This document shows, piece after piece, positions 7,599 to 24,480 of a stretch of 32,000 nucleotides of DNA. The notes beneath the pieces are model-generated. The model saw nothing but the letters and a program-made list of their open reading frames with translations, ran no database searches and was not told the origin of the DNA. Origin of the DNA: Chlamydiota bacterium (GTDB lineage Bacteria > Auribacterota > JACPWU01). The translations under genes and the position numbers were made by a program. The stretch is from assembly GCA_016196885.1 (NCBI GenBank), contig JACPWU010000002.1, positions 1-32,000 of the forward strand, written 5' to 3'. The stretch's first letter is position 1; the number at the start of each line of letters is the position of its first letter.

Positions 7599-9194
7599 AT
7601 GATCGTAGAAAAAAGTTTATTCCCAAATCAGACTGCTCTTTCCCCAGAGCCTGTGGTTCGCTTGGAGAATAGTTTTCAAAATCCTTATGACAATTTTGTG
7701 GCCACGGCCCGCACCTGTTATTCTTCCAAGGTGATCACGTCGCAGGATGTGGCCAAAGATGAAAAGGCTCAAGAGCGGCGAGATGCGATTGCCGAAAGTA
7801 TTTACAAGGCGGGTCATCACACCACGCTACAACATGCAACTTTTCAATTTGTTCTGGAAAAAGTCTCGCGCCAATTTATTTGGTCTTTTCTGCACAGCCA
7901 TCCTTATTATAATTCAGAGCAGGTGAGTCAGCGCTATGTCGAAGTAAAGCCGGATCGTTTCTTGATTCCTCCCCTGGACGAGGACGCCAAGGAAATTTAT
8001 TTGGCGACGATTCAGCTCCAAATGCAGGCCTATCATGAATTGATGAAGCTTGTAGCGCCGACCCTTCAAAATGAATTTAAAAGAATTTTTCCCGTTCGAA
8101 AATTGGAAGAGAAACGCTGGCAATCTTCCCTCAAGAAAAAAGAGCAAGAGGTTGCGAGGTATGTTCTCCCCGTGGCGACGCATGCGCATCTCTATCATAC
8201 CGTGAGTGCGATTACGCTTCTCAGATACCATCGGCTTTGCGAACAGTGGGATACGCCTTTGGAAACAAAAATCGTCGTTCAAAAAATGATGGAAGAGGTG
8301 TTGAAAGTAGACCCCCAGTTTTCGAAAGTGATGGAAGACCCGCTTCCTTTGGAAGGTACACCTGAATATGAAGTGTTTACCCAATTTCATCAGAATCAGA
8401 ATCGATTGGGAGATTCTGACTTTATCCGAGAATTTGATGAGCGTCTGGAAGGGCGTCGGTCAAAATTAATAGATTACAAACGCTTTGGCGAAGAGGCTCT
8501 GGCCCAGTCTGTTCGAACGGTACTGGGTGTGACGCGTGGAAAATTATCTGACACGGATGCAATTGCTTGTGTCATGGATCCCGCTAAAAATCAGCTTTTT
8601 GGGGAGGCCTTGAATTTAGGGAGCTTGAATAAATTGACTCGGACGCTGGTTCATCCTCATTTCACATTTCAGAAAAAATTGAGTCATACTGCAGACTCTC
8701 AGGATCAACGTCATCGCATGACTCCTGGATCTCGACCCATTCTGGCTGGACATTTTCTACCTGGGAAACCCGACTATGTACTCCCGATTGTGATTGAAAA
8801 AACACCGCAAGCCCTCGAATATTTCCAAAAAATCATGGAAAAAGTTTGGGTGGCTATTGAAAAATTAATGGATAAAGGGGTTTCAGAAGAATTTGCATTG
8901 TACCTTTTGCCGAATGCCTTTCCCATTCGATTTGAAGAATCGGGAGATCTCTTGAGCTTTCACCACAAATGGACAAGCCGTCTTTGCTACAATGCCCAAG
9001 AAGAAATTTGGGCGAGTTGCAAAGATGAACTTTTGCAGGCCAGAGAGATTTGTCCTAGAATTGGTGAGTGGATGGGCCCACCCTGTTTCCTTCGAAATCG
9101 AGCTTCGACTAAACCGATTTGCCCAGAGGGAGATCGCTTCTGTGGTATTGCTGTGTGGCGATTACCTTTGGAAAAATATAAGAGAATTATTTAG
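7599..9194 (+). CDS. thyX: ThyX-family (flavin-dependent thymidylate synthase-like) protein, long two-domain form
   Basis: The N-terminal half has a ThyX-like HHTTLQHATFQF...SEQVSQRYV segment with the RHR triad replaced by HSH. The C-terminal half has SQDQRHRM. At 531 aa it is about twice a canonical ThyX. Confidence 0.6.
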   Translation: MIVEKSLFPNQTALSPEPVVRLENSFQNPYDNFVATARTCYSSKVITSQDVAKDEKAQERRDAIAESIYKAGHHTTLQHATFQFVLEKVSRQFIWSFLHSHPYYNSEQVSQRYVEVKPDRFLIPPLDEDAKEIYLATIQLQMQAYHELMKLVAPTLQNEFKRIFPVRKLEEKRWQSSLKKKEQEVARYVLPVATHAHLYHTVSAITLLRYHRLCEQWDTPLETKIVVQKMMEEVLKVDPQFSKVMEDPLPLEGTPEYEVFTQFHQNQNRLGDSDFIREFDERLEGRRSKLIDYKRFGEEALAQSVRTVLGVTRGKLSDTDAIACVMDPAKNQLFGEALNLGSLNKLTRTLVHPHFTFQKKLSHTADSQDQRHRMTPGSRPILAGHFLPGKPDYVLPIVIEKTPQALEYFQKIMEKVWVAIEKLMDKGVSEEFALYLLPNAFPIRFEESGDLLSFHHKWTSRLCYNAQEEIWASCKDELLQAREICPRIGEWMGPPCFLRNRASTKPICPEGDRFCGIAVWRLPLEKYKRII

Positions 9195-9204
9195 GCGCCT
9201 TTTT

Positions 9205-9667
9205 CCCCTCCCCTTGTGGGAGGGGTTAGGGGAGGGGTGATTGAATAACGAGTTAATAGAGATCGCTAAAGCATTAAGGCGCCATCTTACTAATGCGGAG
9301 AAACACCTTTGGTATGTATTGCGTGTTTGTCATTTGGGTGTAAAATTTCGAAGGCAGGCTGTGATTGGGAGATACATTGTAGATTTTGCATGTTTTGAGA
9401 GGAAACTGATTATTGAAGTAGATGGTGGACAACACTCAGAAAGTCAAGATGACAATGTGCGTGATAAGTGGCTTAGGGGAGAAGGGTTTGAAATATTGAG
9501 GTTTTGGAATCATGAAGTGTTGGAAAACCGGAATGGGGTTTTAGAAAAAATTATTGAGAAGTTGACAACCCCCTCCCTAGCCCTCCCCATGGTTTTCGCC
9601 TCTCGGCTCCAACCACTTCCTCGTCCACCCGCAAGCGGGTACCCGGACTCAGTCGCAAGGGGGAGGG
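9205..9667 (+). mobile_element. DUF559-endonuclease element bounded by about 33-bp G/C-tract terminal inverted repeats (family E, ends E2 and E3)
   Basis: Left end CCCCTCCCCTTGTGGGAGGGGTTAGGGGAGGGG (9205-9237) versus the reverse complement of the right end (9569-9589 plus 9656-9667) matches at 26 of 33 positions, and the mismatches preserve each end's own hairpin. An ORF-less copy of both ends lies at 24404-24480. Confidence 0.6.
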
Positions 9668-9672
9668 AATAA
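9241..9672 (+). CDS. DUF559 domain endonuclease (Vsr/restriction-endonuclease-like fold)
   Basis: LRRHLTNAEKHLWYVLR...FRRQAVIGRYIVDFACFERKLIIEVDGGQH...RDKWLRGEGFEILRFWNHEV is the classical DUF559 pattern. TTG start 5 nt after GGAGGGG in the left repeat. The C-terminal 35 aa are encoded by the right repeat. Confidence 0.85.
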   Translation: MNNELIEIAKALRRHLTNAEKHLWYVLRVCHLGVKFRRQAVIGRYIVDFACFERKLIIEVDGGQHSESQDDNVRDKWLRGEGFEILRFWNHEVLENRNGVLEKIIEKLTTPSLALPMVFASRLQPLPRPPASGYPDSVARGRE

Positions 9673-24403: not shown

Positions 24404-24480
24404 CCCCTCCCTTGATGGGAGGGGTGAGGGGAGGGTGATCTTACATTCCCCCTCCCTGACCCTCCCCACAAGGGGGAGGG
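24404..24480. mobile_element. ORF-less (MITE-like or empty-site) copy of the DUF559 element ends (E4)
   Basis: Left half CCCCTCCCTTGATGGGAGGGGTGAGGGGAGGGTGA aligns with 9205-9240. Right half CCCCCTCCCTGACCCTCCCCACAAGGGGGAGGG aligns with 9569-9589 plus 9656-9667. Only 8 nt (TCTTACAT) separate the halves. Confidence 0.6.

Follow-up and report, generated by a model that had tools for sequence, protein, structure and literature searches.

A DUF559 nuclease gene set between inverted triplex-motif repeats: a candidate nuclease-repeat unit in a Chlamydiota genome

How does a small nuclease gene come to lie exactly between two inverted copies of a structured repeat, and do the enzyme and the repeat belong together? 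The question is raised by a stretch of 32,000 nucleotides (the window) from a Chlamydiota bacterium (GCA_016196885.1, contig JACPWU010000002.1, positions 1 to 32,000), in which an open reading frame (ORF) for a DUF559 protein is framed by two G/C-tract modules; a first-pass annotation, made from the letters alone, had read it as a compact selfish element, either homing-like or transposon-like. Repeats of this kind, known as BoxC, PIT or triplex-motif repeats, have been catalogued since the 1990s in thousands of copies and hundreds of genomes and have been tied to local genome instability, yet they still lack a known function, origin or partner enzyme. DUF559, for its part, is one of the largest uncharacterised nuclease families. 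Our assessment is evenly poised on whether positions 9200–9672 are one copy of a widespread, compact nuclease-repeat unit, with the DUF559 gene centred in an inverted pair of triplex motifs. Neither the family of nucleases nor the class of repeats is new in itself; the new part is their nested association. In the literature on either, we found no report of DUF559 nested with BoxC/PIT/TMECO repeats or of the hypothesis that results, and to our knowledge an association between DUF559 and triplex repeats has not been reported.

The position of the ORF between two inverted modules, claimed by the first-pass annotation, is confirmed. On the + strand the left module reads CCCCTCCCC (9205–9213)-TTGT-GGGAGGGG (9218–9225)-TTA-GGGGAGGGG (9229–9237). 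The C-rich arm 1 pairs with the G-rich arm 2, its Watson-Crick partner, across the loop TTGT (9214–9217), and the G-rich arm 3, which together with a following TGA occupies 9229–9240, is the mirror of arm 2 and takes the third-strand position of a triplex motif. A T-run (9200–9204) stands directly 5' of this module, and equivalent TT...AA edges are seen in other copies. The right module runs CCCCCTCCC (9569–9577)-TAG-CCCTCCCC (9581–9588)-70-nt loop-GGGGGAGGG (9659–9667), followed by AA and the stop codon TAA. Here the C-rich arm 4, which starts 4 nt past the end of the DUF559 domain, mirrors the C-rich arm 5, and arm 5 pairs with the G-rich arm 6, the outer right edge of the unit. The right loop holds an insert of 66 nt (9590–9655), where the loop of other copies is ACAA; this insert folds as two small hairpins, lengthens the protein tail by 22 codons and has no match in 1.2 Mb of fetched loci. 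GC-rich small hairpins also occur inside the module loops of seven other loci (L013, L015, L022, L088, L112, L118, L119) and in the tails of the proteins P0027 and P0039, some of them bordered by short duplicated sequences (TTGA...TTGA, CAAG...CAAG), as though the loops were the target of a second element of very small size.

With the insert removed, the reverse complement of the right module equals the left module at 26 of 33 positions. The T/A interruption is placed differently at the two ends and is matched within each hairpin, and both modules self-pair and fold well below shuffled controls, as DNA and as RNA. The self-folding and the compensatory differences described in the annotation are therefore borne out; its picture of simple hairpins is amended by the 70-nt loop on the right and by the mirror third arm, which makes each module three-armed. 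The pattern CCCTCCC-N2–10-GGGAGGG occurs three times in the window and in none of 100 shuffles, and GGGAGGGG is found seven times, against a mean of 1.5. Gene and modules interlock at both ends. A GGAGG ribosome-binding site within arm 3 ends 5 nt ahead of the TTG start, which is how the left end had been interpreted from the beginning, and the same arrangement is present in four homologous loci (L001–L003 and L043). At the other end the ORF has no stop of its own and runs on through the right module to the TAA at 9670–9672, so that its C-terminal tail of 35 amino acids is the translated right module with its insert; the annotation had likewise assigned tail and stop to the right end, and the stop lies 3 nt beyond the limit it had drawn.

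The ORF (9241–9672, + strand) starts with TTG and encodes 143 amino acids, a single domain of 108 residues plus the repeat-encoded tail, and the gene is intergenic, between thyX and glpD. Its protein matches the Pfam family DUF559 (PF04480) over residues 6–108 (nt 9256–9564) with an E-value of 2e-38, and belongs to the family by its profile hidden Markov model score of 131 bits (cut-off 20.6) over profile positions 4–108 of 109. A Neisseria DUF559 protein of solved structure (PDB, 3HRL) is matched with an E-value of 2e-24 using the single sequence and 9e-39 using a profile. In an alignment of 20 sequences, which includes E. coli YcjD and 3HRL, residues D48, E59, D61, H65, D71 and R87 are invariant, and the acidic and histidine catalytic residues of Vsr-like PD-(D/E)xK nucleases are present in the window protein. 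The only other Pfam match, MTES_1575, reached 35.2 bits, under its gathering cut-off of 38.2. By Pfam, DUF559 is the sole ORF of the unit, and no transposase of the DDE, HUH, serine or tyrosine type is encoded in it.

Judged by sequence, the modules are members or close variants of the BoxC/PIT/TMECO class of intrastrand triplex motifs. The first-pass description of hairpin-forming terminal inverted repeats is right as to inversion and hairpins, and is superseded by a known repeat class (PMC4666352) with its mirror third arm. BoxC, PIT elements and TMECO are the same E. coli repeat, whose consensus is CCCTCNCCC-N3–6-GGGNGAGGG-N3-GGGNGAGGG (Holder et al. 2015, PMC4666352, where Hoyne and Maher 2000/2002 are cited). 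The E. coli TMECO triplex has been observed in vitro by circular dichroism and nuclear magnetic resonance; 3610 copies are recorded in 262 proteobacterial genomes and the repeat occurs in cyanobacteria too; inverted pairs exist at five E. coli K-12 sites; and, according to the same paper, no mobility activity has ever been found near TMECO, endonucleases going unmentioned (PMC4666352). Similar G-rich repeats with an adjoining C tract have been described in Methanomicrobiaceae (PMC8044849).

The three-arm layout of that class (C-arm, 3–6-nt loop, G-arm, ~3-nt loop, G-arm) is found in the window at 9205–9237 and 24404–24435 and, inverted, at 9569–9667 and 24448–24480. The second loop is often TTA in both cases, the third arm is a mirror, and the published repeats are intergenic, multi-copy, strain-variable and present as inverted pairs. 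They differ from the window modules in their arms, which are CCCTCNCCC/GGGNGAGGG instead of C4TC4/G3AG4, and in their setting, since a DUF559 gene lies between the motifs here and published work reports no mobility or nuclease gene. The strict TMECO consensus is absent from the window, where the arms carry a single interruption (C4TC4), which makes the window copy a sister variant that falls outside TMECO as strictly defined; arms of the consensus type do occur in fourteen related elements and in E. coli ycjD. Arm types vary among elements (GnAGn, GGGNGAGGG, G5+), and the arms of one module change together in a compensatory way, as in L167, with CCCGCCCC / CCCCGCCC / GGGCGGGG in place of the T, T and A of its relatives. 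In the informative modules of an unbiased sample of metagenome loci, described below, the third arm is the mirror of its neighbour and not a direct repeat in 18 of 19 on the left and 22 of 23 on the right. The A or T of the third arm faces an A:T pair, as in the window, where G3AG4 is followed by G4AG4 (or G4AG3), and intrastrand triplexes of the purine motif follow this rule. The G3–4 tracts of the window modules could also form quadruplexes. Matches to RNA families in Rfam were sub-threshold and hairpin-like only, and an RNA family or riboswitch was rejected.

Several phyla share this layout, and the genomic contexts in which it recurs are unrelated. The window protein is 100% identical to a protein from a metagenome-assembled genome (MAG) of Chlamydiae, and the relatives that share 55–75% identity with it belong to Omnitrophota, Doudnabacteria and unassigned metagenomes. 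Of the 120 best homologs, at least 85 end in tails of the form ...PSLTLPTRGRE or ...PLPNPPHKGEG, which are the right module translated in different frames, and several begin with ...SPPLVGGARGG, again a translated module. Around four homologs the modules are nearly base-for-base the same as in the window, with proteins only 65–75% identical: upstream of a comM-like gene in Chlamydiae (L001), within a glycosyltransferase cluster in Omnitrophota (L002), at a nusA-clpP locus (L003, representing L003–L006) and in Doudnabacteria (L043).

Because repeat-encoded tails would bias a search for homologs, the unbiased sample was collected with a domain-only alignment; it consists of 80 metagenome loci at 48–68% identity. 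By the three-arm test, 52 of 79 have a C-G-G module upstream of DUF559 and 55 of 79 a C-C-G module downstream, and the dominant order is C-G-G / ORF / C-C-G. At least one module is present at 65 of the 80 loci, with a background in the same loci of 7 and 5 of 1298 windows (~0.5%). In most loci the right module begins 0–13 nt past the projected domain end. A DUF559 subfamily on two IMG/VR contigs (L216, L220) has a second module loop of ~35 nt that is itself conserved as an inverted repeat between the ends, and these expanded loops lead to terminal inverted repeats of ~60 nt.

Where does such a unit begin and end? Two loci with unrelated flanks, L140 and L142, match at 86% identity along a stretch of 456 nt that opens with the left module's first base and closes with the right module's last; homology that stops at the module edges in unrelated contexts points to a unit that moves. 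Directly downstream of the element in L142 (760–920) there is a tandem array of 4–5 copies of a ~33-nt unit that includes CCCatcaaGGGaGGGG, which is one half of the right module. The closest syntenic relative, whose ThyX is 77% identical, has a FitA-like/PIN toxin-antitoxin pair (L123, 5685–6331) and no modules in its thyX-glpD interval, which marks this interval as a variable hot spot; a DUF559 copy from that relative's sample lies at a different locus. Synteny at thyX-glpD is lost in a second near relative (ThyX identity 76–77%). The second element of the window, at 24404–24480, is an ORF-less one in the TPR / trmB / GH35 locus, where a syntenic relative has a trmB-GH35 gap of 27 nt compared with 155 nt in the window; TrmB orthologs are at most 56% identical, and this one syntenic locus is without the ORF-less element. 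Both window elements are thus missing from syntenic loci of relatives; at 55–77% protein identity these relatives reveal the absence of the elements and leave the junctions undefined.

That ORF-less locus had also been singled out in the first-pass annotation as having both ends and no gene, correctly so. Its left module (24404–24435, + strand) reads CCCCTCCC-TTGAT-GGGAGGGG-TGA-GGGGAGGG, a central spacer of 12 nt, TGATCTTACATT (24436–24447, + strand), takes the position that the ORF occupies at the other locus, and the right module (24448–24480, + strand) reads CCCCCTCCC-TGA-CCCTCCCC-ACAA-GGGGGAGGG, with a loop of 4 nt. As RNA the whole copy folds at -60 kcal/mol (z = -4.7 versus shuffled controls), and in its arm arrangement it corresponds to a "palindromic TMECO pair". 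A pattern scan of one genome per species returned such ORF-less pairs at no fewer than 114 loci, all of them six-armed and with spacers of 12–35 nt; the taxa among the matches listed are Omnitrophota, Planctomycetota, Alphaproteobacteria, Patescibacteria, Spirochaetes, Thermodesulfobacteria, Zixibacteria, Nitrospinaceae and Archaeoglobaceae. In several of the genomes there are at least seven copies with shared, lineage-specific spacers and outer extensions, which indicates that ORF-less pairs multiply as units. Only two further DUF559 genes were present within those 0.88 Mb of ORF-less loci, and one of the two (L094, 43% identity) has the same architecture built of different arms. At three loci in Archaeoglobaceae MAGs (L029, L100, L116) the six-arm ORF-less elements sit inside an inverted extension of their own (cctctgaataa... 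/ ...ttttcagaggt).

We favour, at about an even chance of being right, a selfish or semi-domesticated nuclease-repeat unit in which the nuclease acts on the motif DNA and repair of the break copies the ORF, the ORF-less pairs, or both. The nuclease would recognise motif DNA, either as a folded single strand or as a palindromic pair and probably as a dimer, and would nick or cut at the motif; the break would then be repaired by copying from another motif-bearing locus. Such repair might carry the ORF into ORF-less pairs in a homing-like manner, and/or it might propagate and homogenise the ORF-less pairs as non-autonomous partners, as REPINs are to RAYT. A dimeric nuclease and a palindromic pair split by a central ORF follow classical homing logic, and an enzyme gene between its own repeats, with enzyme-less doublets elsewhere, follows REPIN-RAYT logic. 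On this proposal the element is selfish or semi-domesticated and not a housekeeping gene. A broader claim, which we hold more tentatively and regard as somewhat less probable, is that DUF559 nucleases, E. coli YcjD and the window gene among them, are the missing enzyme behind the BoxC/PIT/TMECO repeats, in a REPIN-RAYT-like or homing-like partnership of a Vsr-fold nuclease with triplex-forming DNA, which would spread across bacterial phyla and into archaea and would explain both the origin of the repeats and the instability near them. The description of the locus as a compact selfish element stands in so far as the unit is discrete (~460 bp), has the nuclease as its sole cargo and sharp edges in L140/L142, is missing from syntenic relatives and has widespread, multi-copy ORF-less counterparts.

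The broader claim leads to E. coli, whose K-12 gene ycjD is a DUF559 gene with a product 43% identical to the window protein. At its 3' end (L125, 4250–4430, minus strand) there come in turn a degenerate right module, a duplicated piece from the 3' end of a DUF559 gene (GGAGACGGTGCTGGAGAATATTC...) and TMECO no. 9, an arrangement that looks like the remains of a second copy or a rearrangement. A divergent ycjD allele (L127) has an intact TMECO, CCCTCACCC-CAA-CCCTCTCCC-TGAAA-GGGCGAGGG, fused to the end of the ORF, as in the window. Of 5426 complete E. coli genomes, 3378 have the gene, which has been assigned to phylogroups A, B1 and C and two sequence types (PMC12817139). For TMECO counts we used a published table of 56 strains (Holder 2015 Table S7). 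By our assignment of the strains to phylogroups, most A, B1 and C strains have 18–30 copies (UMNK88 has 13), and outside the ycjD phylogroups the counts are 1–13, with 1–2 in B2, 6–7 in F, 10–11 in E and 13 in one D strain. The direction of the counts by phylogroup fits a nuclease that maintains or spreads the repeats.

A number of observations weigh against a unit that spreads in this way. The correlation between ycjD and TMECO is phylogenetically confounded and offers very few independent contrasts, ycjD sits essentially at one E. coli locus (sapF-fabI) in the 3378 genomes, and the sole additional ORF-bearing copy among the fetched loci is the duplicated 3'-end fragment beside K-12 ycjD; E. 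coli genomes without ycjD hold the eefRABCD operon at that locus, and no empty site. PIT elements had no promoter, terminator or in vivo effect in earlier E. coli work (summarised in PMC4666352). No movement event was observed in the loci compared, no target-site duplication is visible at the window edges, in multi-copy genomes or at L140/L142, and in the two comparisons with empty sites the relatives are too far removed for junctions to be defined. The ORF-less spacers of 12–35 nt are without clear ORF remnants, so that such pairs may be either targets or deletion derivatives. Phages carry the element rarely (2 of 50,697 records, and 10 loci among 2.9 million viral contigs) and among plasmids it is found mainly on chromids, which leaves no transfer vector identified. 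The left and right modules of one element can differ in arm type, and in Deinococcus psychrotolerans (L209, paaD-paaZ) and on a plasmid of Synechocystis sp. B12 (L210) the order is reversed to C-C-G / ORF / C-G-G, which means that hairpins, and not third arms, face the ORF there; mixed arm types and reversed order argue against classical transposon ends.

One alternative is that DUF559 is a host nuclease, of housekeeping or repair type, that processes structures at triplex- or quadruplex-prone repeats throughout the genome, its own flanks being cis-regulatory (through autoregulatory binding of the protein, masking of the arm-3 ribosome-binding site and stabilisation of mRNA) and the ORF-less pairs spreading by an unrelated route. 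In its favour, the E. coli gene is single-copy and fixed at one locus, the relative that has been characterised, Vsr, works in repair, polymerases are stalled in vitro by triplex motifs (PMC4666352), and in predicted folds arm 3, with its ribosome-binding site, can pair with arm 1. We nevertheless consider this explanation unlikely: ycjD is missing from 38% of E. coli genomes, unlike a housekeeping function, the DUF559 gene is non-syntenic between related Chlamydiae, homology stops at the module edges in the unrelated contexts of L140 and L142, and the inverted modules packed against the ORF at both ends are left unexplained.

Those same sharp boundaries, together with modules that are inverted at 26 of 33 positions in the manner of terminal inverted repeats, would suit a classical cut-and-paste or copy-out transposon in which DUF559 serves as the transposase and the ORF-less pairs are internal-deletion derivatives mobilised in trans, like miniature inverted-repeat transposable elements (MITEs). 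The ORF-less copies are indeed multi-copy with lineage-specific spacers and extensions, and the spacer of one of them (L016) starts with TGATTGAA, like the ORF-bearing copy. The protein has no known transposase fold, however, being a stand-alone PD-(D/E)xK nuclease of 108 residues without strand-transfer chemistry. TnsA, for comparison, requires TnsB. With no target-site duplication at the edges, ends of differing sequence type, a reversed order in some copies and solitary single modules common in E. coli, we judge a transposon of this kind improbable. Least probable is a passive association, in which recombination-prone triplex repeats gather around or capture small genes and DUF559 is an ordinary accessory gene of restriction or defence type that frequently ends up at such hot spots. 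In its favour, rearrangements in E. coli are concentrated at TMECO loci, the interval between thyX and glpD varies and the ycjD locus alternates with an efflux operon; the ~130-fold enrichment, the fixed geometry with modules ~0–13 nt from the start and the domain end, its retention across phyla and arm types, and the lack of any other cargo gene seen between module pairs all speak against it.

The nuclease-repeat partnership that we favour resembles several established systems in part. REPIN-RAYT systems reportedly combine REP doublets with a REP-associated tyrosine transposase. As in those, an enzyme gene lies between inverted copies of the repeat on which it presumably acts, many enzyme-less doublets exist elsewhere, the repeats fold as single strands and there is no target duplication. 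The window has the flanking inverted repeats and dispersed doublets of that layout; it has no HUH Y1 domain, DUF559 being the only Pfam family found, so that a Vsr-like PD-(D/E)xK nuclease stands where RAYT is an HUH Y1 (IS200-like) transposase. The repeats also differ, three-arm triplex motifs with a core conserved across phyla contrasting with simple REP hairpins.

A second parallel is the EDxHD homing endonuclease I-Bth0305I (PMC3239194, PMC3384342). Its structure (3R3P) matches a profile of the domain alignment weakly (E-value 0.027, residues 33–105), and a published survey places Vsr, DUF559 and 3r3p in one group (PMC3424549), consistent with a related Vsr-like catalytic core. The first-pass annotation, which knew of no established mobility for DUF559 genes, therefore needs qualification, in that this related EDxHD branch does drive homing. 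In both cases a selfish nuclease gene would be copied into the uninterrupted site that it cleaves, and a palindromic target would be broken in two and inactivated by insertion at its centre. I-Bth0305I, however, has an extra DNA-binding region and resides in a group I intron of a conserved gene, whereas the DUF559 protein is a free-standing single domain of 108 residues, its putative target being a non-coding repeat that is dispersed and has a variable spacer. The window gene showed no intron or intein, and the usual setting of a homing endonuclease (in an intron or intein, or beside a conserved target gene, with an additional DNA-binding region) is not seen.

IS200/IS605 elements and their palindrome-associated derivatives share subterminal structures that fold on single-stranded DNA, the lack of target duplication and small non-autonomous derivatives; the window unit differs in having neither TnpA nor TnpB and in having three-armed ends that are inverted copies of each other. 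Vsr itself, the very-short-patch repair endonuclease, has the same fold group and a conserved Asp/His catalytic set, and differs in that the window protein belongs to DUF559 and not to PF03852, stands in a repeat context and has no linked cytosine methyltransferase, none being encoded in the window.

The link between DUF559 and the repeats gives each of them a concrete hypothesis, and the nuclease becomes a candidate, open to test, for the enzyme by which triplex-motif repeats are spread or maintained. The interest is high because an old question becomes directly testable in E. coli K-12, which has ycjD and 23 TMECOs. If the proposal is true, the means by which small selfish repeats propagate would come to include a new class of enzyme and a new DNA structure, the mirror-repeat triplex motif, and the proposal would explain how a motif of ~35 bp has stayed nearly unchanged from Chlamydiae to Planctomycetes, Patescibacteria and an archaeon.

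As for expression, no promoter-like site was found inside the unit or at its modules, which suggests that the gene is probably dependent on read-through from thyX. Neither module shows a terminator-like site on the + strand, where the T-run precedes the hairpin, unlike in an intrinsic terminator. Neighbouring genes of DUF559 genes are co-oriented with them in 34 cases versus 13, with no departure from ordinary gene order. The thyX gene of the window (7599–9194) encodes a product of 531 amino acids with two Thy1 stretches, a long form of ThyX that is common to relatives in Chlamydiae and Omnitrophota, at 61–77% identity.

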